64,000 nucleotides of DNA. Origin: Dehalococcoidia bacterium. Lineage in GTDB: Bacteria > Chloroflexota > Dehalococcoidia > Lucifugimonadales > JAGWBF01. The stretch's first letter is position 1. Every line of letters begins with the position of its first letter. Under the pieces are notes generated by a model. That model was given only the letters and a program-made list of their open reading frames with translations, was not told the DNA's origin and made no database searches. The stretch spans positions 75,633 to 139,632 of the forward strand of contig DAOUJG010000039.1 in assembly GCA_034423015.1 (NCBI GenBank). The letters run 5' to 3'. A program made the translations under genes and the position numbers. Below, piece by piece: positions 2,499-55,751 of the stretch.

Positions 2499-2499
2499 C

Positions 2500-3492
2500 C
2501 TAAGCCCCGAACCTGTCCCAGGCCTGGGGCAGGGCATCCATCGCCTGGGAGGGAAGCGGCCCGTTGGAGGCGTACTCCACGGCCTTCTCCAGGTGGTCCA
2601 TGCTGGAGAACCCGACCAGCACGGTGGACACCTGCTCCTTGGTCAGCGCGAACCGTATCGCCCCCTCTACCAGGCTCTCCGCGTGGCCCTGGTCCACCAG
2701 GAACCCGAACTCCCCCGCACGTCTCACGTCCTCGGCGTAGTCGTTGCGCGACGCCAGCGCCGTCGCCTCCTGGTCCGCCACCGGGTGCCTGGACACGACG
2801 CCGGTGAGGGCGCCCTCGGCCAGCACCGATATGACGACGACCCCCATGTCTCCGGCGCCGGCCCTGTCTATGAGCTCCCCGAAGTCCTGCCCGTCGAACC
2901 CGGAGTGCATCGGCCTGCCCGCGCTGGGGTTCAGCAGGTTGTAGCACGCCTGGACGGTGCTCATTTCGCCCGAGTCCAGCACCCTGAGGACAGCCTCGGT
3001 CTCGCCGAGGCCCGTGATGCCGAAGTGCCTGGCCTTCCCCTGCCGCTGGATCTCCTGGAACGCCTCCACCACCTCCCCCAGCACGTCGTCGACGCTCATG
3101 GCGTCCTTGGGGACGTCGTGCCGGGCCGTGATGCGGTTGTGTAGCTGTATGAAGTCGACGGAGTCGCGGCCCAACAGGCCGAGGCTGGTGTCCATGGACT
3201 TGAGGACGTTGGCCCGGATATCGTCCAGCTCGCCGCCCAGGAGCCCGACCTTGGTGCTGACGACCACGTCGGCATTCAGCTCCTTGAGGGCCAGCCCCAG
3301 GTTCCGCTCGGACACCCCCCCGCCATAGGCCGGGGCGGTGTCGAAGTAGTTGACTCCCAGCTCGATGGCCCGGGCCACCGTCCTGACGCGGTCCCTCTCG
3401 TCACCCCGTACTATCAGACCTCCCACGTTCCCGCACCCGAACCCTATCTCCGAGACCTTCAGTCCGGTGCCGCCAAGCTGCCTGTATCTCAT
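2500..3492 (-). CDS. aldo/keto reductase
   Basis: N-terminus MRYRQLGGTGLKVSEIGFGCGNVGG is typical of AKRs. Start moved from the ORF-track start (3618) to ATG 3492, preceded by aaggagg. Confidence 0.9.
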   Translation of the reverse strand: MRYRQLGGTGLKVSEIGFGCGNVGGLIVRGDERDRVRTVARAIELGVNYFDTAPAYGGGVSERNLGLALKELNADVVVSTKVGLLGGELDDIRANVLKSMDTSLGLLGRDSVDFIQLHNRITARHDVPKDAMSVDDVLGEVVEAFQEIQRQGKARHFGITGLGETEAVLRVLDSGEMSTVQACYNLLNPSAGRPMHSGFDGQDFGELIDRAGAGDMGVVVISVLAEGALTGVVSRHPVADQEATALASRNDYAEDVRRAGEFGFLVDQGHAESLVEGAIRFALTKEQVSTVLVGFSSMDHLEKAVEYASNGPLPSQAMDALPQAWDRFGA

Positions 3493-3611
3493 GGTTCCTC
3501 CTTGTCTACGTTCCACTGGCAGGTTCGGGAGACATCTTCTGTCTCTCTCGCCTATACTATAATGCCTTTCCCCCAGGGGTTCCACGACCCTTTGGGAAGG
3601 CGCTCCCAGGT

Positions 3612-3640
3612 TTGACACCGTTCATAGGCGTTGGTATACT
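3612..3640 (+). promoter_or_regulatory. sigma-70-type promoter candidate for hyuA (TTGACA-17 nt-TATACT)
   Basis: -35 TTGACA(CC) at 3612-3617, 17-nt spacer, -10 TATACT at 3635-3640, about 120 nt upstream of the hyuA start. Confidence 0.5.
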
Positions 3641-3765
3641 CCGCCAGTCGAGGAGGGGCAACGATTCTCGACGGGATGCCGTGTGTTCGAGAGCTTTGCG
3701 TAAGGCTCCCGCGCCTCCAGACCAACCCAGGCCGGCCCCCCAAGCACAGATCGAGGAGAGTATGG

Positions 3766-5853
3766 ATGAGCACGTATAGGATCGGCGTAGACATCGGCGG
3801 GACGTTTACGGACGTGGTGTTCCTGGGCAGCGACGGCTCGGTGCTGGCCAGGAAGATCGCCAGCACGCCCGACGACTATAGCCGCGCAGTGCTTACGGGC
3901 ATCGACGGCGGCATACAGGAGCTGAAGATCTCCTCGGCGCAGGTCTCCGAGGTGGGTCACGGCTTCACCGTAGCAACCAACGCCATCATCGAGGGCCGGG
4001 GAGCCCAGACGGCCCTGATCACCACCGACGGGTTCAGGGACGTCCTGGAGTTCCGGCGCAACCGCATCCCCCGGCTCTACGACCTTTACTACGAGAAGCC
4101 GCCCACCCTGGTGAAGAGGCAGTACCGCCTGGAGGTCCGGGAGCGCATGAACTACAAGGGTGAGGTGCTCCGGCCCCTGGAGAAGGAGGACGTGGACCGG
4201 GCCGTGGACCGCATCCTGAAGGAGGGGATCAAGTCCGTAGCCATCTCCCTGCTCCACTCCTACGCCAACCCGGAGCACGAGGAGTACATCGCCAAGGTCC
4301 TCCGGGAGCGGGCCCCAGACATCATCCTCACGGTCTCCAGCGAGCTGCTCCCGGAGATGAAGGAGTACGAGCGGACCAGCACCACCGTCATCAACAGCTA
4401 CGTCCGGCCGGTGGTGGACCGCTACCTGACCCGCCTGGCCGACGGTCTCAAGGACATGGGCGTCACCGTTCCCCTGGGCGTGATGCAATCCAACGGCGGC
4501 CTGGCCACGACCCAGATCGCCAAGGAGAAGCCCGTCTACTGCATCGAGTCGGGCCCGGCAGCGGGGGTGGTGGGCGCCTTCCACCTGGGCAAGCGCCTGG
4601 GCATAGACAACATGATGACCCTGGACATGGGCGGCACTACGGCCAAGGCGTGCATGATCGAGGACGGCGAGATGCTGCAGGCCCCCGAGTACGAGGTGGG
4701 CGGAGGCATCAGCGCCGGCCACCGGCTCCTGAAGGGCGCTGGGCACATTCTAAGGGTGCCTGCCATTGACCTGGCGGAGGTGGGCGCCGGCGGCGGCAGC
4801 ATCGCCAGCGTGGACAAGAGCGGGTCCCTCCGGGTCGGTCCCGACAGCTCGGGCGCCGTGCCCGGGCCCTCCTGCTACAGCAACGGGGGCACCGACGCCA
4901 CCGTCACCGACTCGGACGTGCTGCTGGGGTACCTGAACCCCGAGCACCTGCTGGGCGGCGCGTTCCCCATCGACCGGGACAAGGCCAGCAAGGCCGTCAT
5001 CGACCACGTGGCGAACCCCCTGGGCCTGTCGGAGATCGAGGCGGCCCACGGGATCCACCTCCTGGTGAACTCCAACATGGGCAGGGCCCTGAGGGCGGTC
5101 TCCAGCGAGCGTGGCCGCGACCCGAGGCGGTTCGTTCTGGTGGCCTTCGGGGGCGGCGGGCCCGTCCACGCCGCCGGCCTGGCCGAGATGCTTGACATCA
5201 CCAAGGTCATAGTCCCTCCGTTCCCCGGGGTGTTCAGCTCCTTCGGCCTGCTGTACGCCGACGTGGAGCACCACTTCGTGCAGACCTACTTCAAGACCTT
5301 CGAGGAGCTGGACATGGGCGCCCTCAACGACATCCTGGAGGGTCTGTGGGAAGAGGGCCGAAGCCAGCTCCGGGAAGAGGGCTTCGCCGACGACTCCCAC
5401 GAGGTGGTGACCCAGGTGGACATGAAGTACGAGGGGCAGGTCTCCGAGCTCACGGTCTACCTCCCGCCGGGCAGGGTAACGCCCGAGAACCTGAAGAAGC
5501 TCAGCGACTCCTTCGAGGAGGAGCACGAGAGGACCTACGGCTACCGCACCGACGCCACCTTCCAGCTTGTAAACCTGCGGGTAATCGCCCGCGGGCTGTC
5601 CAAGGAGTCGCGGATACCGGACAGCATGGAAATACCCTCGACTTCCAACAGCGGCGCCTCGCAGCGCCCGGTGTACTTCGGACCCAACCACGGTTTCATG
5701 GACGCGCCGGTGATGAGCCGGGGGGCCCTTGCCGGCAAGACCATGTCCGGCCCCCTGATCATCGAGGAGTACGACTCGACCACGGTGGTCCCTCCCGGCT
5801 GGAAGGCCTCCATAGACCAGTGGAGAGACGTGGTCCTGGACCGGGAGGAGTAG
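3766..5853 (+). CDS. hyuA: hydantoinase/oxoprolinase family protein, A (HyuA-type) subunit
   Basis: N-terminus MSTYRIGVDIGGTFTDVV is the family hallmark. Start set to ATG 3766 behind gaggagag; the upstream 45 codons of the ORF look non-coding. Confidence 0.9.
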   Translation: MSTYRIGVDIGGTFTDVVFLGSDGSVLARKIASTPDDYSRAVLTGIDGGIQELKISSAQVSEVGHGFTVATNAIIEGRGAQTALITTDGFRDVLEFRRNRIPRLYDLYYEKPPTLVKRQYRLEVRERMNYKGEVLRPLEKEDVDRAVDRILKEGIKSVAISLLHSYANPEHEEYIAKVLRERAPDIILTVSSELLPEMKEYERTSTTVINSYVRPVVDRYLTRLADGLKDMGVTVPLGVMQSNGGLATTQIAKEKPVYCIESGPAAGVVGAFHLGKRLGIDNMMTLDMGGTTAKACMIEDGEMLQAPEYEVGGGISAGHRLLKGAGHILRVPAIDLAEVGAGGGSIASVDKSGSLRVGPDSSGAVPGPSCYSNGGTDATVTDSDVLLGYLNPEHLLGGAFPIDRDKASKAVIDHVANPLGLSEIEAAHGIHLLVNSNMGRALRAVSSERGRDPRRFVLVAFGGGGPVHAAGLAEMLDITKVIVPPFPGVFSSFGLLYADVEHHFVQTYFKTFEELDMGALNDILEGLWEEGRSQLREEGFADDSHEVVTQVDMKYEGQVSELTVYLPPGRVTPENLKKLSDSFEEEHERTYGYRTDATFQLVNLRVIARGLSKESRIPDSMEIPSTSNSGASQRPVYFGPNHGFMDAPVMSRGALAGKTMSGPLIIEEYDSTTVVPPGWKASIDQWRDVVLDREE

Positions 5854-5951: not shown

Positions 5952-7691
5952 ATGCAGCAGACCACGGACCCGGTCACCCGGGAGATCATCAAGAACGCTC
6001 TGATGAGCGCCGCCGACACCATGGCGCTCACGGTGGTCCGCACGGCCCGCTCGGCGGTCATCAAGCACGGCATGGACTTCTCCACCGCGCTGTTCACGGC
6101 CGACGGGCAGCAGGTGGCCCAGGGCCTGACTCTGCCGGCCCACCTGGGGTCCATGGCCCCGGCTCTGGAAGGAGTGATGAAGGCCTTCGGGGACGACGTC
6201 CAACCGGGAGACATCTTCGCCAACAACGACCCCTACGAGGGCGGCAGCCACCTGCCGGACATCTTCCTCTTCAAGCCCATATTCGCCTACGACACCCTGG
6301 TGGGCTGGAGCTGCTGCATCGGGCACCAGACAGACATCGGCGGACGCATCCCCGGCGGCAACGCCTGCGACAGCACCGAGATCTACCAGGAGGGCCTCCA
6401 GATCCCTCCCCTCAAGCTGTACAGCAAGGGCGTCCTGAACCAGGCCGTGTGGCGCATCCTGGAGAAGAACGTGCGCGTCCCCGACAAGGTGCTGGGCGAC
6501 GTGCAGGCCCAGCTTGCCGCCGTACGGTTCGGCGAGCGGGACCTCCAGCGCCTGGTCGACGACTACGGCGTCGAGGAGATCAAGAGCTACATGTCCGACA
6601 TCCTGGACTCCACCGAGCGCATGACCCGGGCGGAGATACAGGGCCTGCCCGACGGCGAGTGGGAGTTCACCGACCACCTGGACAACGACGGCATCGACAT
6701 GCGGCCCATCGCCATCCACGCCAAGGTGAAGATAGATGGGGACACGGTGTACGTGGACTTCGAGGGCACCTCGCCCCAGGCCAGGGGCTCCATCAACCCC
6801 AACTTCGCCTACACCAAGTCCCAGGTATACGCAGTGATGAAGTGCCTGATCGACCCCGCCATCCAGTCCAACAGCGGCTTCTTCAGGGCTTTCCAGATCA
6901 AGGCGCCCGAGGGCTGCTTCGTGAACCCGCAGCACCCGGCGCCGGTGGCGGCCCGGGGGATGTCCGGCTTCCGCGTGTGCCACGCCCTCTTCGGCGCCAT
7001 GGCCCAGGCGTTGCCGGGGCGGGTGCCGGGAGCGTGGGGCGGCGGAGAGGCGGGCCTGAGCTTCGGCGGCTACCACCCCGACCGCAAGGCGTGGGTCTAC
7101 CTGGAGTTCGACAACGACGGCCCCAGGGGCGGCGGCCCCTTCGTAGACGGGGCCGACGGGCTGGCCGCGCCCATACACAACATGGCCAACACTCCCATAG
7201 AGACCATAGAAGCCGACCAGCCGCTGCTGGTGGAGCGGTACGGCCTGGTGCCCGACAGCGGCGGGCCGGGGACCTTCCGGGGCGGGCTCGGGATGGTCCG
7301 GGAGTTCCGCGTGACCGCCGAAGAGGCCACCTTCCAGCTTCGCTCGGACCGCCAGAACTTCAGGCCCTGGGGCGCCGAGGGAGGCATGGACGGCACCCCC
7401 ACGGAGAACTACATAAACCCCGGCACCGACAGCGAGCAGATTCCCGCCAAGTACCTGACCACCCTCAAAAAAGGGGACCTGTACCGGCTAATCCAGGCCG
7501 GGGGCGGCGGGTACGGCGACCCCCTGGACCGGGACGTGAACGCCGTGCTGGAGGACGTGGAGCAGGAGAAGATGTCCGTCGAGTACGTCAGGCGGGAGTA
7601 CGGCGTCGTAATCGACCCCGAGACCCTGAACCTGGACCCCAGGGGCACCGACGAGCTAAGGGCCCGCATGCGGGCCGAGCGGAGCGGCTAG
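5952..7691 (+). CDS. hyuB: hydantoinase B/oxoprolinase family protein (HyuB-type subunit)
   Basis: MQQTTDPVTREIIKNALMSAADTM... and NDPYEGGSHLPD motif. Start ATG 5952 behind aggagga; directly follows hyuA. Confidence 0.9.
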   Translation: MQQTTDPVTREIIKNALMSAADTMALTVVRTARSAVIKHGMDFSTALFTADGQQVAQGLTLPAHLGSMAPALEGVMKAFGDDVQPGDIFANNDPYEGGSHLPDIFLFKPIFAYDTLVGWSCCIGHQTDIGGRIPGGNACDSTEIYQEGLQIPPLKLYSKGVLNQAVWRILEKNVRVPDKVLGDVQAQLAAVRFGERDLQRLVDDYGVEEIKSYMSDILDSTERMTRAEIQGLPDGEWEFTDHLDNDGIDMRPIAIHAKVKIDGDTVYVDFEGTSPQARGSINPNFAYTKSQVYAVMKCLIDPAIQSNSGFFRAFQIKAPEGCFVNPQHPAPVAARGMSGFRVCHALFGAMAQALPGRVPGAWGGGEAGLSFGGYHPDRKAWVYLEFDNDGPRGGGPFVDGADGLAAPIHNMANTPIETIEADQPLLVERYGLVPDSGGPGTFRGGLGMVREFRVTAEEATFQLRSDRQNFRPWGAEGGMDGTPTENYINPGTDSEQIPAKYLTTLKKGDLYRLIQAGGGGYGDPLDRDVNAVLEDVEQEKMSVEYVRREYGVVIDPETLNLDPRGTDELRARMRAERSG

Positions 7692-45127: not shown

Positions 45128-46531
45128 ATGGCAGACAACGATATCGCTCTAATGGCCCACCTGATGCGACGGGCCGGGTTCGGCGCCCGGTACGAAGAGC
45201 TGGAGGCCCGGGCTGCCAAGGGGTACGAGGCCACCGTCGAGGAGCTGCTGAACCCCGAGGAGCATTCCAACGGCCTGGAGCTGGACCTGGCGGAACGGTA
45301 CTTCATCGAGTGGAACCAGTTCACCAGGGGCGTCCCCGAGTACTTCGCCTGGCGCATGATGAACTCCAGGGCCCAGCTCGAAGAGAAGATGATCCTCTTC
45401 TGGCACGGCATCCTGTGCACGGCTGACAGCAAGACCCAGAGCTACGCCACGTCCTACGTGGAGCTGGAGATGTTCCGCCGCTACGGTATGGGCAGCTTCC
45501 GGGACCTGCTGGTGGAGATCTCCAAGGACCCGGCCATGGTCTACTTCCTGGACAACTGCCTGAGCCACAAGGGGGCCATCAACGAGAACTATGGACGGGA
45601 GCTGCTGGAGCTGTTCTCCATGGGCGTGGGCATGGACGACCAGTTCAACTACACCGAGGACGACGTAAAGGAGTGCTCCCGGGCCTTCACCGGCTGGACC
45701 ATCGCCAACTCCATCCCGACGCAGCCCTACGGGCCCTACGAAGCCAGGTTCGTCTACAACCCGCTGGACCACGACGACGGGGTGAAGACCTTCCTGGGCG
45801 AGACCGGGCGCTTCAACGGCGAGGACGTCATCGACATCATCTGCAAGCAGCCGGCCACGGCCCGGTTCATCTCCCGCCACGTGTACAGCTACTTCGTGGC
45901 CGACGAGGCCCAGGTGCCCCTATGGATGGAGACCCCGCCCCGGGACCCGGACACCATCAAGATGCTGGAGGAGGAGTACTTCCGGTCGGGCTACGACATC
46001 CGCTCCATGCTGCGGGTGCTGTTCCACTCGGACGCCTTCAAGAACGCCCGCTTCTCCAGGGTAAAAGGGCCAATCGAGACGGTGATGGGAACCATGCGCC
46101 TGATAGGGGACTGGACGTCTCCCAAACCCGGGTTCGAGTTCATCTTCGACGAGATGAAGTTCATGGGGCAAGAGATACTGAACCCGCCCTCGGTGGAAGG
46201 CTGGCACACGGGCAAGGAGTGGATCGACGGCGGCACCCTGGTGCACCGCATCAACTTCACCGCCGACTTCGTGGGCGACACGAGCTACCCGGGCGTGCAG
46301 AGTATAGTCAACAGGCTGGCCTCGGAGGCACCCACCCTCTCGGCCGATGGGCTGGTGGACGGATGCCTGCGGCTGCTGGGACACTACGAGCTGGACGCCG
46401 AGACCCGGGAGATGCTCGTGGCCCGCGCCCAGAAGGGCGGCGACCTGCGCACCGACAGCGAGGAGTTCCCCCAGAGGGTCAGGCAGATGCTGCAGCTGAT
46501 AGTTGCCACGAAAGAGTACCTTTACGCCTAG
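45128..46531 (+). CDS. DUF1800 family protein, copy 3
   Basis: MADNDIALMAHLMRRAGFGA, EEKMILFWHG, DPAMVYFLDN..SHKGAINENYGRELLELFSMG, SRAFTGW. ATG 45128 behind ggaggag. Confidence 0.8.
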   Translation: MADNDIALMAHLMRRAGFGARYEELEARAAKGYEATVEELLNPEEHSNGLELDLAERYFIEWNQFTRGVPEYFAWRMMNSRAQLEEKMILFWHGILCTADSKTQSYATSYVELEMFRRYGMGSFRDLLVEISKDPAMVYFLDNCLSHKGAINENYGRELLELFSMGVGMDDQFNYTEDDVKECSRAFTGWTIANSIPTQPYGPYEARFVYNPLDHDDGVKTFLGETGRFNGEDVIDIICKQPATARFISRHVYSYFVADEAQVPLWMETPPRDPDTIKMLEEEYFRSGYDIRSMLRVLFHSDAFKNARFSRVKGPIETVMGTMRLIGDWTSPKPGFEFIFDEMKFMGQEILNPPSVEGWHTGKEWIDGGTLVHRINFTADFVGDTSYPGVQSIVNRLASEAPTLSADGLVDGCLRLLGHYELDAETREMLVARAQKGGDLRTDSEEFPQRVRQMLQLIVATKEYLYA

Positions 46532-46609
46532 GCGGAGCCCCGGGCCCCGGGAAGTTGTCGGCGGGCAGGTCCCTCATTTCGGGCCCCCATTGGAAAAGGA
46601 GGAGGAAAC

Positions 46610-47746
46610 ATGACGGCCAACAAGAAAGACCCGGTGCTGGTGGTGCTGCAGCTGTCGGGGGCCTACGACGCGCTGAACACGGTCATCCCGTACGAAGACC
46701 CCCTGTACATGGACTACCGCCCGGTGCTGAAGGTGGAGCCTGAGGAGGTCCTGCCGCTGGACGACAAGGTTGTGCTCAACCCGGCGATGGCGCCGGTGAA
46801 GGAGCTGTACGACCAGGGGAAGGTTGCCGTCATCCAAGGCATCGGCTATCCCAACCCCATCCGCTCCCACTTCCGGTCGATGGACATCTGGCATACCGCG
46901 GTGCCCGAGAAGATGGTCACCGACGGCTGGCTGGGCCGGGCCATCCGGGAGCTGGACCCCCACAAGGAGAACGTGCTGACGGCCGTGAACTTCGGCCGGG
47001 GACTGCCCAGGGCCCTGGCGGCCCCGGGAGTGTCGGTGGCATCGGTGGGCAACTTGGAGACCTACGGGGTGCTGACCGGGATCAAGGGCCAGGACCAGAG
47101 GACGGACGCCCTGGACGCATTCGCCAGGATGTACTCGCCCCTGATCGGCAACGGCCCGGTGAACGACTACCTGTCCCAGACCGGACTGGACGCCCTGAAG
47201 GGCGCCGACATCCTGGCAACCGCCCCAGACGCGTACTCCTCCACCGTGGAGTACGCCGGGGACCCATTCTCCCAGTGGGTCAAGAACATCGCGCAGGTGC
47301 ACCTGGCGGAGTTCGGCACACGCATCCTCTACACCGCCCTGGACCCGGGGGCGTTCGATACCCACGCCAACCAGGCAACGGCGTTCCCCAAGCTGTGGTC
47401 CGAGGTGTCCAACGCGGCGAGCGACCTGTACCACGACCTGAAGGAGCACGACGCCAACCAGGAGGTGGTGATCCTGATGTTCACCGAGTTCGGCCGGCGC
47501 GTGCAGGAGAACGGCTCGGGCACGGACCACGGCTCGGGCGGGGTGGCCTTCGTAATGGGGGACGCGGTCAAGGGCGGGCTGTACGGGGAGTACCCCTCCC
47601 TGGAGCCGTCCAAGCTGGACGAAGGCGACCTCAGTTGGAACAACGACTTCCGGGGGATGTACGCGACGCTGCTGGAGAAATGGATGGGCATGGAGCCCCA
47701 GCCCATTCTCGGAGGGTCCTTCGAGCAGTTCGACCTCATCAAGTGA
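46610..47746 (+). CDS. DUF1501 family protein, copy 2, no Tat/Sec leader
   Basis: VLVVLQLSGAYDALNTVIPY, GIGYPNPIRSHFRSMDIWHT, FTEFGRRVQENGSGTDHG. Confidence 0.78.
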   Translation: MTANKKDPVLVVLQLSGAYDALNTVIPYEDPLYMDYRPVLKVEPEEVLPLDDKVVLNPAMAPVKELYDQGKVAVIQGIGYPNPIRSHFRSMDIWHTAVPEKMVTDGWLGRAIRELDPHKENVLTAVNFGRGLPRALAAPGVSVASVGNLETYGVLTGIKGQDQRTDALDAFARMYSPLIGNGPVNDYLSQTGLDALKGADILATAPDAYSSTVEYAGDPFSQWVKNIAQVHLAEFGTRILYTALDPGAFDTHANQATAFPKLWSEVSNAASDLYHDLKEHDANQEVVILMFTEFGRRVQENGSGTDHGSGGVAFVMGDAVKGGLYGEYPSLEPSKLDEGDLSWNNDFRGMYATLLEKWMGMEPQPILGGSFEQFDLIK

Positions 47747-47802
47747 GCCGGCCGGGTGCGGGCTCGGCCGTCGGGCGTGAACCAAGAACTAGCGAGGAAG
47801 AG

Positions 47803-48840
47803 ATGGTCACTCAGATACCGCCTTTAACCTTCGAGTACAGCCACACCATCGGGCGGCAAGAGGTCCGGAGTGGGAACGGGTTCTTCTTCCCGGTGGCCAT
47901 AACCAAGGACGAGGAGGGCCTGCTGTACGTGCTGAGCCGGGGCACCGAGACCCCTGCGTTCTTCCCATGTAAGCGGGTGACGGTGTTCACGGTGGACGAG
48001 GATCTGGTCAGGGACTACGGGCAGAAGGTCCCCCCGGAAGAGGCGACCAGGGAGATGGCCCCGGACGGCAGTTTCATGTGGCCCACCTCCGTCGCCCTGG
48101 ACTCGGAGAACAACACCTACGTGTCCGACGAGTGGCTGGACCATATATCCGTATTCGACAAGGATGGGAAGTGGACCGCCAAGTGGGGCACTCCCGGAGA
48201 CGGCGACGGCGAGATCGACCGACCCTCGGGCCTGGCGTTTGACAAGAACGACAACCTGTACCTGGTGGACAGCCGGAACAGCCGGGTCCAGATATTCACC
48301 AGGGACGGCCGGTTCCTGGACAAGTGGGGCCGTAAGGGCGACGGCGACGGCGAGTTCGACATGCCGTGGGGCATCGAAATCGACGGGAACGGGGACGTGT
48401 ACATAGCCGACTGGCGGAACGACCGGATCCAGAAGTTCGCCCCGGATGGCCGGTTCCTGATGAAGTTCGGCACGTCGGGCCAGGGGGACGGGGAGTTCAA
48501 CCGGCCCACGGGAGTCGCCGTCGACGGCGAGGGGATCATCTACGTCACAGACTTCAAGAACGACCGGCTCCAGGTGTTCGACCCAGAGGGCGGCTTCATC
48601 ACCAAGCTGACGGGCGAGGCCACCCTGTCCCAGTGGGGAAGGGAGCGGGTGGAGCTGGACCCGCTGGCGTCCAAGGGCCGGAGGGTGGCCCAGGGCCTGC
48701 GGGAGCGCGAGAAGGTGTTCCAGGGGCCCATCGCGGTGGAGGTGGACGACGAGGACCGGGTCTTCGTGGTGGAGTGCGCCCGCCACCGGGTCCAGGTGTT
48801 CCACAAGCAGTCCGCCATATTCCAGGGGGGGCTGCTGTAG
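47803..48840 (+). CDS. NHL-repeat beta-propeller protein, copy 3
   Basis: MVTQIPPLTFEYSHTIGR...; blades PSGLAFDKNDNLYLVDSRNSRVQIF, PWGIEIDGNGDVYIADWRNDRIQKF and PTGVAVDGEGIIYVTDFKNDRLQVF. ATG 47803 (ORF-track start 47275 rejected). Confidence 0.85.
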   Translation: MVTQIPPLTFEYSHTIGRQEVRSGNGFFFPVAITKDEEGLLYVLSRGTETPAFFPCKRVTVFTVDEDLVRDYGQKVPPEEATREMAPDGSFMWPTSVALDSENNTYVSDEWLDHISVFDKDGKWTAKWGTPGDGDGEIDRPSGLAFDKNDNLYLVDSRNSRVQIFTRDGRFLDKWGRKGDGDGEFDMPWGIEIDGNGDVYIADWRNDRIQKFAPDGRFLMKFGTSGQGDGEFNRPTGVAVDGEGIIYVTDFKNDRLQVFDPEGGFITKLTGEATLSQWGRERVELDPLASKGRRVAQGLREREKVFQGPIAVEVDDEDRVFVVECARHRVQVFHKQSAIFQGGLL

Positions 48841-48947
48841 ACGGGGCCTTCGGTCACTTTCCTCATCTTTTGGGAAAGGATCTCCGTATTCATCCTCGTA
48901 TGCGGCCTTCGCATGACCATGGCGGCTCCGCTGTAGCTGCCCAACCC

Positions 48948-49493
48948 CTACAGGTCAAACTGGTCAAATGGATTGTGCCCCAACAATGTTTGCGTGAGCC
49001 GGTCATTCCCCGCTGGAATATGCGTGCCCCGCTCATATACAAACGGTAACTTCTGCATCCTGTTATCCTTCCGCCAGAACTGCTTGAGTTTCCGCACTGT
49101 GTCCGGTGTCTTGCATACGACCGTGAGTAATACCCGTGGGCAGGCTGGATGGAAGAGGAGCGGCATATAGTCGTGGTCTTCATCTTCGGAGTAGTCGCAG
49201 GCACTCCGCCACTTCCTCGTGGGGCCATAGTACCTCACCCCATTGTCTCCCTGGACCCACTCATCCCGGTCTATGCAGTCTTTGAAATCGGCATCGTCGA
49301 CCTCAACCCGAATGACTTTCCACCCAATGCTTCCATGGTCGGTGACCAAGCGGAAGTAACAGTCGCCCGGCGACAGGGGCCATTCGTACAACTTTACCTG
49401 TGGCAACGGTTGTTCAGTGCTGGTGGGGCGTTTGAGAAAAGGGAGGATGAGAGCTACGAAATTACCGAGGAGCCCAATGATTGTCAGCCACAT
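48948..49493 (-). CDS. hypothetical protein with N-terminal TM helix (181 aa)
   Basis: MWLTIIGLLGNFVALILPFL... then a Cys/Trp/Asp-rich soluble part. Lies in the low-GC islet, 17 nt downstream of the Mrr-cat gene. No family recognised. Confidence 0.5.
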   Translation of the reverse strand: MWLTIIGLLGNFVALILPFLKRPTSTEQPLPQVKLYEWPLSPGDCYFRLVTDHGSIGWKVIRVEVDDADFKDCIDRDEWVQGDNGVRYYGPTRKWRSACDYSEDEDHDYMPLLFHPACPRVLLTVVCKTPDTVRKLKQFWRKDNRMQKLPFVYERGTHIPAGNDRLTQTLLGHNPFDQFDL

Positions 49494-49510
49494 GGTCGGC
49501 CACTAACCCG

Positions 49511-50326
49511 TCAGGATCGCTGTTGCGCTTCAATGATTTCACTCATTCTGGCCAGTTCTGGAGCGTCAACAAGTATTATCGGTTTGCCGCGTGCAAAGTC
49601 CTTGACTCCCTTTGTGAACCCTCCGGTACACGCCAGGATTGCATTGTTGGCACGAAGATGCACCATGGTCCCATATAACTCTCTGACAACCGCTACGCCT
49701 ACTGGGGACCGGTACCTCTTGCACTGAACGACGGTCTTTTTGCCCTTCTTCCGCAAAATGAGGTCAGCCCCTCCATCGCTCGAACCACCGGTGTACGACA
49801 CTTTGTACCCACGACGTTCACAAAGTGCTCCTAGTTCAAGTTCAAATTCGTCATCGCTGAGCCCATTCCAATACCCCTCTCGCTTTCTGAGAGCTTCCCG
49901 CTCAGCTTCCTCCCGCGCTCTTTCCTCTGCCCACCGTACGCGCTCGGTTTCCCGTCGCACCTGCTCAGCTTCCTGTCGTGCCCTCTCCGTCTCCCGCTGC
50001 ACTTCCTCATAGGCAGACTGCGCCACTTCGTACCGATTGATTTGAGAGGCTACAGGGCTCTTGAACAGACGCGACGTCTTGAACCGCTCTATAAGCGGCC
50101 ATACCAAAAACATAATACAAGGGACCAGAAAATAGAATGCGAACACTCCAACGGCAAGTGCGACTACCCAGCTTCTAGTAATGACGAAAGTGACAAAGGC
50201 AACGACCAACGTCAAGACAACCAATGTGAGTCCAAGGAGGAGGCCCCCAGGCCCGCCACTCTTGCCAATATAGAGCGCATATTCCTCGGGTGTTACCCCG
50301 AAGTCTTGCAATTCTGGCTTCTGCAA
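49511..50326 (-). CDS. membrane-anchored restriction-endonuclease-like protein (Mrr_cat PD-(D/E)xK domain) with coiled-coil linker
   Basis: 2-3 TM helices, charged heptad segment RETERARQEAEQVRRETERVRWAEERAREEAEREA, then LSDDEFELELGALCERRGYKVSYTGGSSDGGADLILRKKGKKTVVQCKRYRSPVGVAVVRELYG (Mrr_cat pattern D-GG-D...Q-C-K). TTG start. Confidence 0.7.
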   Translation of the reverse strand: MQKPELQDFGVTPEEYALYIGKSGGPGGLLLGLTLVVLTLVVAFVTFVITRSWVVALAVGVFAFYFLVPCIMFLVWPLIERFKTSRLFKSPVASQINRYEVAQSAYEEVQRETERARQEAEQVRRETERVRWAEERAREEAEREALRKREGYWNGLSDDEFELELGALCERRGYKVSYTGGSSDGGADLILRKKGKKTVVQCKRYRSPVGVAVVRELYGTMVHLRANNAILACTGGFTKGVKDFARGKPIILVDAPELARMSEIIEAQQRS

Positions 50327-50410
50327 ACCCCATCACCCGGGCGCCGTTTGGTCACCTAGTCTAACGTCGCCTCCCCAAGCATCCGAGTCTCTATGAGAAT
50401 ACCGGCGGCT

Positions 50411-50689
50411 TTACCCATGGGCCTCGACTTCTTTATCGACTCCGCATGGCTGGCACAGTTCGAAGTCTTGTATGCCCAGTTGGGCAAAGCCGCCCAGTGC
50501 ACCGTCGAGGGTGTTGTAACGCATCAGGGTTTCAGGGTCGAGCACTGCTGGACAGGGTATCCGGTGGATTATTTTGCTTTCGTGTTCGGTCGAAATGCCG
50601 TACATCACTCGCCTTCCATGGTCCATACCACCCCGTGGATTCCGGCTCGGGGCCGGAAATACGGTGAGGATGAGACCGACCGGGCGCAC
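50411..50689 (-). CDS. hypothetical ORF (92 aa), doubtful
   Basis: Only an open frame between amidase 4 and the Mrr-cat gene. No recognisable family or clear RBS. Confidence 0.2.
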   Translation of the reverse strand: MRPVGLILTVFPAPSRNPRGGMDHGRRVMYGISTEHESKIIHRIPCPAVLDPETLMRYNTLDGALGGFAQLGIQDFELCQPCGVDKEVEAHG

Positions 50690-50690
50690 G

Positions 50691-52100
50691 CTAAGCGAAG
50701 GGCGGCCTCCTGGTATGCCATGGGGTGTTCTGCTCGTAGGCGTGGGCGACCCTCAGCACCGTTGCCTCTTCACCGGGACGGCCGGCTATCTGTAGCCCTA
50801 TGGGCAGGCCGTTGGAGGCGAAGCCGCAGGGCACCGAGGCGGCGGGCGTGCTGGCCAGGCTGAAGCCGGCGGTGCTGCTGAAGGGGACGGCGCTCGGCGG
50901 CTCCCCAGCCGCCGGGGGCTGGTCGACCTCCCGGACCGGCGGCGCGGTCATGCCCGACGTGGGCTGCACCAGAACATCGTACCTCTCCAGAGCCTCCAGT
51001 ATCTGGCGCCTGAGCAGGGTCCTCAGCTTCCGGGCCTTGTAGTAAGCCTGGGACGGCATGATGCTCCCGGTGAGAAGACCTATGCGGTTGTCGTGGCCGT
51101 AGTCCTGAAGACGGCCCCTGATCCACTCCCGGTGGGTCGAGGCCGCCTCCACGGCGGACTGCACCCCCGAGATATCGAGCATGTGCCTGGTCAACGGGAC
51201 CGATACCTCCTCCACCGATGCGCCCATCTCTCCCAGGACACCGGCGGCGGTGACCACCGCCTCCCGCACCTCGGGCTCCGCGAAGTCCGCGTCCACCTGC
51301 TCGGCAATGAGCCCCACGCGAAGGCCGGCGATGTTGCCGTCCAGGGCCTTCCTGTAGTCGGGGACGGGGGTGTGCCACGTGTACGGGTCCCTGGGGTCGT
51401 ACCCGGCGATGGCGCCCAGGGTAATGGCCGCGTCCTCGACGGTGCGGGAAATGGGGCCGACGGTATCCATGGACCAGGAGCCGGGCATGACGCCGTAGCG
51501 GCTCACCCTGCCCCACCCGGGCTTCATGCCCGTCAGGCCGCACCACGCCGCGGGCCGGCGCAGGGAGCCGCTGGTGTCCTCGCCCAGGGAGGTGGCGCAG
51601 AGGAAGGCGGCGGTGGCGGCCCCAGACCCGCTGCTGGACCCGCCGGGGCAGGTGTTCAGGTCCCAGGGGTTGCGGGGGTAGCTGAAGCGGTGGGAGAACC
51701 CCGTGATGGCGAACTCGGTCATGTTGGTCTTGCCCAGGAGCACGGCCCCGGCCACTTTCAAGTTGGCTATGACCGTCGCGTCCTCCTCGGGGAAGAAGCC
51801 GGCCAGGATGCGCGAGCCCCCCGTGGTCCGGACGCCCTTGCTCCAGAGCTGGTCCTTCACCGCCACGGGAACCCCGTGCATGGGTCCGAGGTAGCCGTCC
51901 CGGGCGATGGCGTCCTCGGCGTCCTTCGCCGCCCGGAGGGCCTCATCGCGGCAAACGGTCAGGTAGGAGTTGAACCTGAAGTCCAGATCGTCGATGCGCT
52001 CCAGGTACGCCTGGGTGACCTCGACGGGAGAGACCTCTTTGGTCCGGATGAGGTCCGACAGTCGGGTGACGCTGAGGAACGGGATCTCCGCTCGGTTCAT
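50691..52100 (-). CDS. amidase (amidase-signature family), copy 4
   Basis: GGSSSGSGAA and GEDTSGSLRRP. N-terminus MNRAEIPFLSVTRLSDLIRTKEVSPVEVTQAYLERI. Confidence 0.9.
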   Translation of the reverse strand: MNRAEIPFLSVTRLSDLIRTKEVSPVEVTQAYLERIDDLDFRFNSYLTVCRDEALRAAKDAEDAIARDGYLGPMHGVPVAVKDQLWSKGVRTTGGSRILAGFFPEEDATVIANLKVAGAVLLGKTNMTEFAITGFSHRFSYPRNPWDLNTCPGGSSSGSGAATAAFLCATSLGEDTSGSLRRPAAWCGLTGMKPGWGRVSRYGVMPGSWSMDTVGPISRTVEDAAITLGAIAGYDPRDPYTWHTPVPDYRKALDGNIAGLRVGLIAEQVDADFAEPEVREAVVTAAGVLGEMGASVEEVSVPLTRHMLDISGVQSAVEAASTHREWIRGRLQDYGHDNRIGLLTGSIMPSQAYYKARKLRTLLRRQILEALERYDVLVQPTSGMTAPPVREVDQPPAAGEPPSAVPFSSTAGFSLASTPAASVPCGFASNGLPIGLQIAGRPGEEATVLRVAHAYEQNTPWHTRRPPFA

Positions 52101-52125
52101 CGCTGGCTCCCTTCTCGACCCCAGG

Positions 52126-53289
52126 TCACGCCCGGGCCAGGAGGCGCTCCCGCACTCCCGTGTCCGAGGCGATGTCGATGGCGGTCCACGCCATGGCCGT
52201 GGCGCCGTCTATGACGGCCCTGTCGCCGGCGGGGCTGACGCAGTGGGCGGTGAACTCGGGCTGGTGGTTCACGGCGGGCAGGGAGTCTATCCCGATCATG
52301 GGATGTATGGAGGGCAGGGCCAGGGAGACGTTGCCCATGTCGGTGGAGGCGGCGGCCCGCTCCAGCATGGGGCCCAGGTCGGGGTAGCTGCGGCCCAGGG
52401 CCTCGCTGTTGCGCCGGTACATGTCGGCGATGGCCTCGTCGTGGTGCATCTCGGCATAGGGCTTGGTGCCCCCGACCACCTCCATGGTGCTGCCGGTGGC
52501 CAGGGCCCCCGCCTCGAAGCACCTGAGGACCCTTGGCCGTAGCTCCTCCATCTCCTCCAACGACTGTCCGCGCACGATGTACTTGGCGCTGGTGAAGGAG
52601 GGGATCACGTTGGGGGCGTCTCCGCCCTTGGTTATGATGCCGTGGACCCTCTGGGTGGGCAGGATGTGCTGCCGCAGCAGGCCGATGCTCGTCTGGGCGA
52701 TGGTCAGGGCGTCGGCGGCGTTGATACCCCGCTCGGGGAAGGCCGCGGCGTGGGCCTCTTTGCCGGTGTAGTTGACCTCGAACATGGACGCCGCGATTAT
52801 CCTGGGCATTACGATGTCGAAGGGCGCGGGGTGGACCATCATGGCGGCGTGCATTCCGTCGAAGGCGCCCCGCTCCAGCATCAATATCTTCCCGCCGGCG
52901 TCTCCGACCTCCTCGGCCGGCGTCCCGACCACACTGACTGTCAGGCCCAGGTCGTCGGCTACCCTGGCGGCGGCCAGCGCGGCGCCGATGGCGGCGGAGG
53001 CGATGATGTTGTGGCCGCAGGCGTGCCCGATGACGGGGAGGGCGTCGTACTCGGCGCAGATGCCCAGGTGCAGGGGACCGCTTCCCGCCCGGGCGATGAA
53101 CGCCGTGGGCAGATCGCACACGCCCGTCTCCACGACGAACCCCTTGTCGGACAGGAGCTCCGCCAGCCAGCCCGAGGACTTGGTCTCCTGGTAGCCCAGC
53201 TCCGGGTTCGCGTGAATCCTGTGGCTGAGCTCGATCAGGGAGTCTTGCTCTCCACGAATCAGCTCTCGAGCGCCGTCCTTCGCGTCCAT
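52126..53289 (-). CDS. M20-family amidohydrolase/peptidase (AbgB/hippurate-hydrolase-like)
   Basis: LSHRIHANPELGYQE, ICAEYDALPVIGHACGHN, GTPAEE motifs; 387 aa. Confidence 0.85.
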   Translation of the reverse strand: MDAKDGARELIRGEQDSLIELSHRIHANPELGYQETKSSGWLAELLSDKGFVVETGVCDLPTAFIARAGSGPLHLGICAEYDALPVIGHACGHNIIASAAIGAALAAARVADDLGLTVSVVGTPAEEVGDAGGKILMLERGAFDGMHAAMMVHPAPFDIVMPRIIAASMFEVNYTGKEAHAAAFPERGINAADALTIAQTSIGLLRQHILPTQRVHGIITKGGDAPNVIPSFTSAKYIVRGQSLEEMEELRPRVLRCFEAGALATGSTMEVVGGTKPYAEMHHDEAIADMYRRNSEALGRSYPDLGPMLERAAASTDMGNVSLALPSIHPMIGIDSLPAVNHQPEFTAHCVSPAGDRAVIDGATAMAWTAIDIASDTGVRERLLARA

Positions 53290-53376
53290 GACACCTCCTC
53301 AGGCCGTCCGCCCCGGCCCCATCATGGATTATACACCAGACCATGACCGTTGCCCCCCGGCGGCCCGGCGGCCCAA

Positions 53377-53385
53377 TGGTATACT
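53377..53385 (+). promoter_or_regulatory. extended -10 element (TGgTATACT) upstream of the molybdopterin-subunit gene
   Basis: TG at 53377-53378, TATACT at 53380-53385, no good -35. A TATAAT on the opposite strand (53328-53333) faces the M20 gene. Confidence 0.35.
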
Positions 53386-53435
53386 ACCCCCAACCCGGGC
53401 TCCCCCCAACTCGGCGTCCGCAGGGAGGCGATGAC

Positions 53436-55751
53436 GTGACAAGCTACCTGGGACGGTCGCTGCGCCGGTCCGAAGACCACCGGCTCCTCCAGGGCCGGGA
53501 CGCCTTCGTGGACGACATCCGCCTCCCCGACGCCCTGCACGCCTGCGCGGTCAGGAGTCCCCACGCCAGCGCCCGCATCGCGTCGGTGGACGCCGCGGAC
53601 GCCGCGAGCGCGCCGGGCGTGGTAACGGTGCTTACGGGGGAAGACCTGCGGGGCGTCCTCGGCGACGTGCCCACCCGCAGCATGGAGAGGGAGCCGGGGG
53701 TGGAGGAGATGCGGTCGGTGGGGCACCCGGTCCTGGCGCAGGACCGGGTGTGCTACGTGGGGCAGGCCGTTGCCATGGTGGTGGCCACGGACCGGTATGC
53801 CGCACGGGACGCCGCGGACCTGGTGAGGGTCGACTACGAGCCAATGGCCCCGCTGGTGGAGGCGCCCGCGGCCCTGGACGACGGGGCCACTTTGGTCCAT
53901 CCCGACCTGGGCACCAACGTGGGCATGCGGATCATACAGGAGGGCGGCGACGTGGAGGCGGCCTTCGCCCGGGCCGCCCACCGGGTGTCGGAGCGCTTCG
54001 ACGTCCAGCGGCTTGCCCCGGCGCCCATCGAGACCAGGGGGGTGCTGGCCAGGTACGAGGCCGACGACGACACTCTGACCGTCTGGTCTTCCACCCAGGA
54101 GCCCCACCAGCTAAGAAGGCACCTGGCCGCCGCCATGCACATGCCCGTCGACCGGGTCCGGGTCGTAGCCCCGGACGTGGGCGGCGGGTTTGGCGAGAAG
54201 AGCAGCATGTTCCCCGAGGAGTTCTGCATTCCGTACCTGGCGAAACACCTGGGAAGACCCGTGAAGTGGATAGAGGACCGTCAGGAGAACATGCTGGCCT
54301 TCCACGGCCGCGGCTACACCGTCGACGTCGAGGCCGCCGTGACGGAGGACGGCGTCATCGAGGGGATGCGGGTGAGGCTGGTGGCGGACCTGGGGGCGTA
54401 CACCCTGATCTCGACCCCGGCCATCCCCCTCCTTGCCGGTCACCGGGTGGCTGGGCCCTACAGGACCCCGGCAGCCAGGGTGGACGTCTTCGGCGTCTTC
54501 ACCAACAAGCCCCCCACCGGCGCCTACCGGGGAGCGGGAGGGCCCGAGTCAGCCTACTGCATAGAGCGCACCATGGACCTGATCGCCCGGGACCTAGGCC
54601 TGGACCCGGCGGAGGTGCGGCGGCGGAACCTGATCCCACCCGACGCCTTCCCCTTCGACACGCCCACGGGGCTCACCTACGACTCCGGCGACTACCAGCG
54701 CGCCCTGGACCGCGCGCTGGAGCTCTCCGGGTATGACTCCTGGCGGCAGAGGGCCGCGGAGCAGGGCCAAGACGGACCGCTGGTGGGAGTCGGCCTGGCG
54801 ACGGTGGTGAAGGCGTCGGGCGGCGCCGGGGAGATGAGGACCGAGGTGGCGGAGGTGCGGGTCCAGCCCTCGGGCCGGGTGGTGGCCTACACGGGCGTCT
54901 CTCCCCACGGCCAGGGAACGGAGACGACCTTCGCCCAGATAGTGGCCTCGGAGCTGGGCGTTACCCCCGGCGACGTGACGGTGACCCACGGGGACACCGA
55001 CCTCAACCCCCTGGGCGGAGGGACGGCCGCCAGCCGGGGGATGGTCGTGGGGTCCTCGGCGCTGCAGATGGTGGCCCGGCAGGCGCGGGCCAAGCTGGCC
55101 AGGACCGCGGCCCACCTGCTGGGCTGCCCCGCAGACCAGGTGGCCTTTGGCGACGGGAGAGCCTACGTCGGCGGCGACCCATCCCGGTGGACGCCCTACG
55201 CCGACGTCGCCTCGGCGGCCTACGACGAGGAGCGGCTGCCTCCCGGCGAGGAGCCGGGCCTGCTCTTCGCAGGGTCGTTCACCCTGCCGGGTCCCGCCTT
55301 CGGTTTCGGGGCCCACGTGGCGGTGGTGGAGGTGGACCGGGACACGGGGGACGTGAAGATCGTGAAGTACGCCGCCGTCCACGACGTGGGCCGGGTGGTG
55401 AACCCCATGCTCCTGGACGGCCAGGTCCACGGCGCCATCGTCCAGGGCATCGGCCAGGCCCTGACAGAGGAGGTCAGCTTCGGCCCCGACGGTCAGCCCC
55501 TGACGGCCAGCCTCCTGGACTACTCGCTGCCCGACGCCGGCGGCACGCCGTGGATGGAGCTGGACACCATCGAGACGCCCTCGCCCATGACACCCCTGGG
55601 AGTAAAGGGGGTGGGGGAGCTGCCCACCGTGGCCGCCCCCGTGGCCGTGGCCAACGCGGTCATGAACGCCCTGGCGCCCCTGGGCGTGCGGGACATCGAG
55701 ACACCGCTGACGCCCGAGCGGGTGTGGAGGGCGATTCACGGAGGCGGGTGA
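53436..55751 (+). CDS. xanthine dehydrogenase/aldehyde oxidase/CoxL-family molybdopterin-binding subunit
   Basis: LGRSLRRSEDHRLLQGRDAFVDDI N-terminus, GGGFG(E)K, AYRGAGGPE, GxGE..(GVGELPTVAAPVAVANAV) C-terminal motif. GTG 53436 sits 7 nt after gggagg. Confidence 0.88.
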   Translation: MTSYLGRSLRRSEDHRLLQGRDAFVDDIRLPDALHACAVRSPHASARIASVDAADAASAPGVVTVLTGEDLRGVLGDVPTRSMEREPGVEEMRSVGHPVLAQDRVCYVGQAVAMVVATDRYAARDAADLVRVDYEPMAPLVEAPAALDDGATLVHPDLGTNVGMRIIQEGGDVEAAFARAAHRVSERFDVQRLAPAPIETRGVLARYEADDDTLTVWSSTQEPHQLRRHLAAAMHMPVDRVRVVAPDVGGGFGEKSSMFPEEFCIPYLAKHLGRPVKWIEDRQENMLAFHGRGYTVDVEAAVTEDGVIEGMRVRLVADLGAYTLISTPAIPLLAGHRVAGPYRTPAARVDVFGVFTNKPPTGAYRGAGGPESAYCIERTMDLIARDLGLDPAEVRRRNLIPPDAFPFDTPTGLTYDSGDYQRALDRALELSGYDSWRQRAAEQGQDGPLVGVGLATVVKASGGAGEMRTEVAEVRVQPSGRVVAYTGVSPHGQGTETTFAQIVASELGVTPGDVTVTHGDTDLNPLGGGTAASRGMVVGSSALQMVARQARAKLARTAAHLLGCPADQVAFGDGRAYVGGDPSRWTPYADVASAAYDEERLPPGEEPGLLFAGSFTLPGPAFGFGAHVAVVEVDRDTGDVKIVKYAAVHDVGRVVNPMLLDGQVHGAIVQGIGQALTEEVSFGPDGQPLTASLLDYSLPDAGGTPWMELDTIETPSPMTPLGVKGVGELPTVAAPVAVANAVMNALAPLGVRDIETPLTPERVWRAIHGGG

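Follow-up and report, generated by a model that had tools for sequence, protein, structure and literature searches.

The closest described counterparts of the gene analysed here are two nucleases that carry a membrane anchor. Epona, a cassette from the superintegron of Vibrio cholerae, has been validated as a single-gene defence against phage and is described as Mrr_cat fused to a two-transmembrane ('holin-like') domain (bioRxiv 10.1101/2024.07.02.601686). SNIPE (PD-lambda-1) is a transmembrane (TM)-anchored nuclease that cuts phage DNA during injection, and removal of its anchor is toxic to the host (Nature 2026, PMC13190303). Nuclease tethering as a means of self/non-self discrimination was first shown in 2026, for SNIPE, which is a GIY-YIG enzyme. 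We analysed a 64,000-nt stretch of a Dehalococcoidia genome (the window; all coordinates are in window numbering, and the genome is labelled G000). A low-GC islet in it encodes an Mrr nuclease that is tethered to the membrane and has a long stalk and a conserved motif at its N-terminus. Next to it is the gene of a small, unannotated protein associated with defence genes, referred to here as the partner. The islet is best explained as two independent defence-type genes that were placed side by side and are adjacent only in this strain lineage, a reading that we consider likely. The nuclease probably acts as a membrane-tethered restriction nuclease, by analogy with Epona or SNIPE. The islet, its two genes and the parts of the nuclease are as follows.

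48852..50679, no strand: foreign low-GC insert in a hypervariable slot between convergent core genes (blastn and composition)
49511..50326, minus strand: membrane-tethered Mrr-type PD-(D/E)xK nuclease, 271 aa, TTG start (open reading frame (ORF), Mrr_cat match, AlphaFold2 (AF2) model)
50267..50326, minus strand: conserved N-terminal motif of the nuclease, predicted to be cytoplasmic, aa 1-20, consensus KEPELQDFGITPEEYxLY (alignment A4; predicted local distance difference test score (pLDDT) 92-95)
50087..50248, minus strand: hairpin of two TM helices, aa 27-80, with a basic RFKxSRL segment after it (Kyte-Doolittle; AF2)
49862..50056, minus strand: charged helical stalk, aa 91-155, E/R-rich, of variable length across homologues (AF2; A4 columns 300-400)
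49544..49861, minus strand: Mrr_cat catalytic domain, aa 156-261, with E162, D188 and Q201-x-K203 (Pfam envelope; A4)
48948..49493, minus strand: partner, a membrane-anchored beta-sandwich protein of 181 aa from a rare family associated with defence islands (ORF, AF2, profile search)

The first-pass annotation, which was made from the sequence alone, had proposed that the two genes form one nuclease system and had set their co-occurrence across genomes as one test. The test does not support this proposal. The census of the nuclease, with one genome per species, comprised 51 homologue loci with flanks of 6 kb on either side. These loci were mostly from Dehalococcoidia. The rest were matches limited to the nuclease domain (Planctomycetota, Anaerolineae and other groups), a single full-length match from a Pirellulales metagenome-assembled genome (MAG) and a weak match from a Nitrospirota MAG. 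When the loci were searched with hmmsearch, the partner profile had no match within ±6 kb of a nuclease homologue (0/51 loci), and the nuclease profile had none in the partner-family loci (0/12). Among 61 related genomes, both families were found together only in the window genome, and none of its 60 relatives holds both. Partner homologues were present in two of these relatives, G017 and G022, at 37-38% identity, and neither genome has a nuclease match; the genomes with a strong nuclease match, G038, G001 and G003 (a contig-end fragment in the last), have no partner. A word-index search with the partner returned one protein, 96% identical, on a contig of 924 bp (L028). This contig is 97-98% identical to the window locus, including the 3' end of the nuclease gene and the 3' end of the flanking NHL-repeat gene, and it carries the sole other copy of the nuclease-partner pair. 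Since the whole locus is copied at this identity, L028 represents a conspecific strain. Because the two families never co-occur in the loci or relatives surveyed, the pair is confined to this strain lineage. The locus illustrates that close spacing of genes is insufficient to define a system.

The anatomy of the nuclease agrees with what had been seen in the sequence alone, namely an Mrr_cat PD-(D/E)xK domain, TM helices and a charged helical segment. Pfam Mrr_cat (PF04471) matched residues 156-261 over profile positions 4-114 of 115; the score is 102 bits (E 2.8e-29), the cut-off being 21. In A4, an alignment of 27 nuclease-family sequences, residues E162, D184, G186, D188, V200, Q201, C202 and K203 are invariant. 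The concern that the nuclease might lack catalytic residues was not borne out: the Mrr-type E...D...QxK catalytic site is intact, with the residue roles assigned from the known Mrr motif. Conservation in A4 extends to the N-terminal motif KEPELQDFGITPEEY, where P4 and D8 never vary and conservation reaches 90% or more at L6 and G10, and to the juxtamembrane segment RFKRSRLL-SPVASQIKLYEE. Kyte-Doolittle windows of 19 residues exceed 1.6 over residues 23-82. In the AF2 model (pLDDT 90.5) the short N-terminal motif is followed by a helix at 27-50 and another at 53-89, the alpha/beta core spans 158-270, and the stalk at 91-155 is modelled as a single helix with a pLDDT of 93-98. Residues 1-155 thus comprise the short motif, the pair of TM helices and the long stalk helix. 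Basic residues follow the second TM helix, and by the positive-inside rule the nuclease domain is predicted to be cytoplasmic.

The nuclease family is mainly from Dehalococcoidia and is a single-gene family. Approximately 90 full-length homologues were found, at 40-57% identity, and about half of the homologues have a Zn_ribbon_Top1 domain at the C-terminus, which the window copy does not have. Among the 61 related genomes the matches are patchy: 13 have any match, and a match at E<=1e-30 was present only in G000, G001 and G038, with a contig-end fragment in G003. The contexts of the homologues vary. Some lie between POR and ATP-synthase genes, some beside HicB and a transposase, and some beside a SocA/Panacea gene. 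At five loci (L050 4925-5932; L057 4973-5968; L051 5192-5962; L058; L045 4589-5020 and 5546-5887, where it is split) a protein of ~330 aa directly precedes the nuclease homologue. This protein is without a Pfam match, and its Rx4H motif (RN-FAHG) resembles the one in HEPN domains. L045 and L050 share the ~330-aa Rx4H gene and do not share the wider neighbourhood. A HEPN-like and TM-Mrr pair may therefore exist in a subclade of the nuclease family, and the window copy is without it.

Compared with Epona by description only, the window protein is alike in having two N-terminal TM helices and Mrr_cat in one stand-alone protein, and in being small mobile cargo without a methyltransferase. In contrast, the stalk of ~65 residues and the conserved N-terminal motif are not mentioned in the description of Epona, and Epona is almost confined to V. 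cholerae, whereas the window nuclease family is mainly found in Dehalococcoidia. The likeness to SNIPE lies in the proposed action: SNIPE is anchored in the membrane by its N-terminus and carries its nuclease in the cytoplasm at the C-terminal end of an elongated middle part, the layout predicted for the window protein, and neither has a methyltransferase. SNIPE differs in having one TM helix, a DUF4041 domain that binds DNA and the tape-measure protein, and a nuclease of the GIY-YIG type; two TM helices, a plain charged helix and PD-(D/E)xK take their places in the window protein. Pfam gave no DUF4041 match in the window nuclease, GIY-YIG is absent and the nuclease domain is Mrr_cat, and the PADLOC model PD-Lambda-1 matched weakly (E 4e-4) over residues 65-139, which are only the second TM helix and the charged helix. 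The window nuclease is not a member of the SNIPE family.

Proteins with the order 2TM-Mrr_cat-Zn_ribbon_Top1 are encoded on proteobacterial plasmids (for example WP_022560450.1 from Xanthomonas and WP_004164110.1 from Nitrosococcus), and their nuclease domain is 41-49% identical to residues 156-271 of the window protein. Like the window protein they have two N-terminal hydrophobic helices, are ~270-280 aa long and lie on mobile DNA; unlike it, they have a short linker in place of the stalk, no KEPELQDFG motif and a C-terminal zinc ribbon. Plasmid genes annotated as 'restriction endonuclease', ~275 aa, are at L095 2192-3028 (Xanthomonas plasmid) and L096 2210-3025 (Nitrosococcus plasmid pNWAT01). 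The membrane-anchored Mrr architecture is widespread on mobile DNA and uncharacterised. The well-conserved Dehalococcoidia family adds to SNIPE a different nuclease fold (Mrr-type PD-(D/E)xK), a two-TM hairpin, a variable stalk and an invariant N-terminal motif. Taken together with Epona and the plasmid proteins, it suggests that tethering may have evolved repeatedly and could be common, and the family is a good test case for SNIPE-like spatial immunity in other nuclease folds.

On this basis we propose the following mode of action. The two-TM hairpin would anchor the nuclease in the membrane, and the stalk helix of ~65 residues, which is likely to dimerise, would hold the PD-(D/E)xK domain in the cytoplasm just below the membrane. 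There the nuclease would cut incoming phage or plasmid DNA. Tethering, and not a partner methyltransferase, would keep the nuclease off the chromosome, which was shown for SNIPE and which the make-up of Epona suggests. The partner, which elsewhere lies at the 3' end of varied restriction and abortive-infection (Abi) operons, would be a facultative accessory or an independent passenger of defence islands.

The fold of the catalytic core suggests another explanation for the nuclease. The Mrr-like protein AF1548, two type IV enzymes (MspJI and AspBHI) and EndoMS can all be superposed on the predicted core, with a probability of 1.00 for AF1548, MspJI and AspBHI; a sequence search of the nuclease against PDB chains gave no match. 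E. coli Mrr, MspJI and AspBHI share with the window protein the catalytic fold, the D...QxK motif type and the lack of a cognate methyltransferase. They are, however, soluble and have an N-terminal reader of modified DNA (an Mrr_N winged helix or an SRA-like domain), whereas the N-terminus of the window protein is a membrane anchor. No Mrr_N, SRA or other modified-base reader was matched in the nuclease by Pfam or NCBIfam. Because no reader domain is detectable, the window protein does not appear to be a classical Mrr-type type IV enzyme. PADLOC gave only partial matches to the nuclease. The ZorD and mREase_IV models matched with their nuclease parts, the mREase_IV models at 4e-8 to 9e-8. The closest candidate model, PDC-S02, had a best E of 1.8e-10 (38.6 bits) over residues 81-260 and profile positions 125-304 of 334, a match that may reflect the shared Mrr_cat and charged helix.

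It is possible, if unlikely, that the nuclease is an ordinary type IV (modification-dependent) enzyme or an Abi effector, with an anchor that is incidental or that serves activation, host DNA being cut after a trigger, rather than self-protection. The modification-dependent MspJI and AspBHI are among its top structural matches, the mREase_IV models match at the values given above, and the ~330-aa Rx4H protein that precedes the homologue at five loci would suit an Abi-style pairing. The lack of a nearby methyltransferase is also consistent with this explanation: as first annotated, none was found among the ORFs at 46000-54000, and the nearest match resembling a fusion of methyltransferase and HNH in the genome is disrupted and lies on another contig (G000:C26). 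The missing reader domain weighs against it, and the family-wide conservation of the TM hairpin and of the juxtamembrane and N-terminal motifs argues for functional anchoring.

The partner had been described as a protein with one TM helix and no recognisable family. This description holds: there was no match in Pfam, NCBIfam, PADLOC, PHROGs, PDB sequences, plasmid records or phage records, and in particular none to a housekeeping family, which had been raised as a check. The AF2 model (pLDDT 85.9) has a TM helix at 2-20 and strands over 33-154 that form a beta-sandwich. From the charge distribution, the N-terminus would be outside and the C-terminus inside, with the sandwich in the cytoplasm. 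Comparison of the fold with PDB and BFVD gave nothing significant (best E ~9e-3, TM-score <0.35), and no function was drawn from the likeness, which was only that of a generic beta-sandwich. A profile search of 1.84 billion representative proteins gave 26 matches at E<=1e-3 (26 clusters), and 24 of these are small proteins of 83-191 aa, most of them 150-190 aa. Two long proteins, P0143 with VWA repeats and P0145 with spiralin repeats, were dropped as compositional or repeat artefacts. A phylum-wide sample of 400 genomes yielded no further homologue. Common to the family are a TM helix at the N-terminus, basic residues behind it, and the motifs ELPKI-LY, F-L-TD--S-GWKVIRVEV and EW-D-C-YP-G, and a confident fold and the conserved motifs are kept at 20-35% identity.

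We inspected 13 independent contexts of the partner, the window locus included, and recorded the same-strand gene just upstream. A restriction-modification or Abi gene lies one or two genes upstream of the partner in 11 of the 13, often with operon-like spacing. The contexts are as follows.

G017, G022, L033, L041: N6_N4_Mtase-HNH fusion directly upstream
L039: N6_N4_Mtase-HNH one gene further upstream, with a DUF433 gene between
L037: BglII-like restriction endonuclease with its methyltransferase, 4-nt overlap
L040: SacI-like restriction endonuclease
L031: HEPN_RES_NTD1-RES protein, in a plasmid-like region
L036: AIPR/AbiU protein, 568 nt apart
L038: PDC-S32/AbiJ_NTD4 and DUF433
L042: DUF7700 upstream, and DpnI with a methyltransferase 1.5 kb downstream
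L032: upstream gene of unrecognised type
Window locus: TM-Mrr nuclease

The pair of methyltransferase (MTase)-HNH and partner recurs (L014 6406-8471, L033 3332-5531, L041 33-2331, L039 1737-4567 and L013 6698-8866). It persists at pairwise identities of 36-44% for MTase-HNH and 30-45% for the partner, as measured in the four loci with an intact fusion gene. In G017, G027 and G038 a split or frameshift interrupts the MTase-HNH gene. The two genes may form a unit of their own. MTase-HNH was ruled out as an obligate mate of the partner, as close homologues occur without the partner in G010, G027, G038 and G048, and a toxin-immunity pair was ruled out because the partner follows many unrelated upstream genes. 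In two metagenome strains (L038 and L039, positions 1700-4600) an identical partner protein (P0129) and DUF433 gene follow different upstream defence genes, PDC-S32/AbiJ_NTD4 in the former and MTase-HNH in the latter, and the surrounding toxin-antitoxin genes differ too. This difference is local shuffling of a defence neighbourhood. The partner is a facultative rider of defence operons, and none of them has it as an obligate subunit, because MTase-HNH homologues occur without it and an identical partner stands behind different defence genes. The partner family is a separate, modest lead through guilt by association and a candidate for catalogues of defence islands.

These neighbourhoods also allow a reading in which the partner family is an as yet undescribed accessory module of restriction and Abi operons, for example a membrane adaptor or gate, which here would be joined to the Mrr nuclease as a methyltransferase-free device at the injection site. 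Such an adaptor could bring nucleases as different as MTase-HNH, BglII-like, SacI-like and Mrr_cat enzymes to the site of DNA entry or could control their activity. We regard this as improbable.

That the two genes form a dedicated membrane nuclease system of two components, with a partner that would sense, gate or neutralise the nuclease, is in our view quite improbable. The arrangement does invite it. The three ORFs of the islet are as they had been described, 49511-50326 (minus strand, 271 aa), 48948-49493 (minus strand, 181 aa) and 50411-50689 (minus strand, 92 aa), and the first two share an orientation, with 17 nt and nothing resembling a terminator between them. For each protein, the soluble domain is predicted to lie on the cytoplasmic side of the membrane, and the arrangement is retained in the second strain, L028. 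That strain has it at the same site with 97-98% identity, so it is not independent evidence. The absence of co-occurrence in 51 nuclease loci, 12 partner loci and 61 related genomes speaks against the idea, as do the existence of ~90 full-length nuclease homologues without the partner, the presence of six or more other unrelated gene families upstream of the partner at other loci, and the unequal GC content at third codon positions (GC3) of the two genes (0.555 vs 0.676).

The composition and position of the islet suggest how it was acquired. GC content in 300-bp windows is 0.51-0.58 over 48800-50600, compared with 0.63-0.72 on either side. No other 1850-bp stretch of the window is as poor in GC as the islet, which has 0.551 (mean 0.657, sd 0.028). 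The low-GC islet of the first-pass annotation therefore stands, although its lower bound of 40% was too low; its other GC values are right. GC3 is 0.555 in the nuclease gene and 0.676 in the partner gene, whereas six flanking genes have 0.91-0.93. This difference in GC3 between nuclease and partner would fit genes of separate origin that later came to lie side by side. The insert is 1828 bp long and lies between an NHL-repeat gene and an amidase gene. Three genomes of the same genus, G001, G002 and G003, retain both flanks at 91-94% nt identity (blastn). Homology to them ends at 48839-48868 on the left and restarts at 50680-50691 on the right. Their equivalent slots are 935 bp (L025 3466-4400), 1320 bp (L026 5290-6609) and 392 bp (L027 6195-6586) long, respectively, and are unrelated to one another and unlike that of the window; the slot of G002 encodes a 173-aa ORF whose family was not recognised. 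The earlier suggestion of horizontal acquisition is supported, because GC3 is far from that of the flanks and the islet occupies a hypervariable slot with unrelated contents in the three congeners.

In agreement with the earlier description, no convincing flanking repeats or integrase were found. Direct and inverted repeats at the slot were only short matches at chance level, and no integrase, transposase or tRNA was present among the window ORFs or at the slot, which sits between two protein-coding genes. A search for promoter and terminator consensus sequences at the locus also gave only chance-level matches. The slot is a recombination hot spot without a mobility gene. In our reading, the islet is recently acquired accessory DNA that replaced earlier contents of the slot between the two convergent core genes. 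Replacement probably took place by recombination through the conserved flanks, the simplest route where integrase, tRNA and terminal repeats are all missing.

The defence role that had been proposed can thus be kept for each gene separately, on the basis of domain content and neighbourhoods, and not for the two as one system. Several observations weigh against our reading of two independent defence-type genes with a tethered restriction nuclease. The window nuclease has no DNA-recognition domain, and it lacks the Zn_ribbon_Top1 that many homologues carry. One representative of PDC-S02 gave no protection against T4, T5 and T7 in E. coli B (bioRxiv 10.1101/2024.09.26.614923). The 17-nt spacing without a terminator between nuclease and partner is operon-like, which leaves room for a local functional interaction, and the two genes are probably co-transcribed here. 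The neighbouring genes are metabolic, so the locus is not a classic defence island. Between the partner and its strain copy there are seven non-synonymous and two synonymous differences, a ratio of non-synonymous to synonymous substitution rates (dN/dS) of ~1 from small counts on a low-coverage contig; this is a weak hint that the partner may be drifting or under relaxed selection here rather than functional.

The metabolic flanks and the dN/dS of ~1, together with the nuclease homologues that sit between housekeeping genes, would also fit a nuclease that serves a cellular DNA transaction at the membrane (uptake, segregation or repair) beside a partner that is a decaying passenger ORF, but the patchy distribution, foreign composition and variable slot fit poorly with a housekeeping role, nuclease homologues have toxin-antitoxin and transposase neighbours, 11 of 13 partner contexts have a restriction-modification or Abi gene one or two genes upstream, and the partner family keeps its confident fold and motifs at 20-35% identity, and we consider this explanation, in which neither gene is defensive, very improbable.

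The remaining features of the locus are as follows.

50411..50689, minus strand: doubtful 92-aa ORF, no family, 5' end overlapping a repetitive extragenic palindrome (REP)-like element
50628..50679, plus strand: REP-like element of ~52 bp adjoining the amidase stop codon, with copies 81-87% identical in the slots of G003 (direct) and G001 (inverted)
47803..48840, plus strand: left flank, core NHL-repeat beta-propeller gene, GC3 0.91 (Pfam NHL 1.8e-33; 91-95% nt identity to congeners)
50691..52100, minus strand: right flank, core amidase gene, GC3 0.91, convergent with the NHL gene (Pfam Amidase 7.9e-110)

The 92-aa ORF had been called doubtful, and our results agree with this. It had no match in Pfam, PADLOC or NCBIfam and no homologue in the 60 related genomes, and an opposite-strand frame at 50393-50644 likewise had no family and no homologue. 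Part of the ORF is made up of the REP-like element, and the region probably serves the nuclease gene as a non-coding leader or promoter. The REP-like element (ccggctcggggccggaa..acggtgagg) has further copies at L027 ~6429-6478 and, inverted, in L025. It occurs only once within the 64-kb window and is the sole sequence common to the slots of the congeners.

The ORFs over 46000-54000 include DUF1800-like and DUF1501-like genes (both named by eye), the NHL and amidase genes, an M20 peptidase and a CoxL-like gene. The amidase orthologues in G001-G003 have 93-96% aa identity. These three genomes, of 2.6-3.9 Mb, each hold ~30 amidase (PF01425) paralogues that match the window amidase at E<=1e-40, which is a striking expansion.

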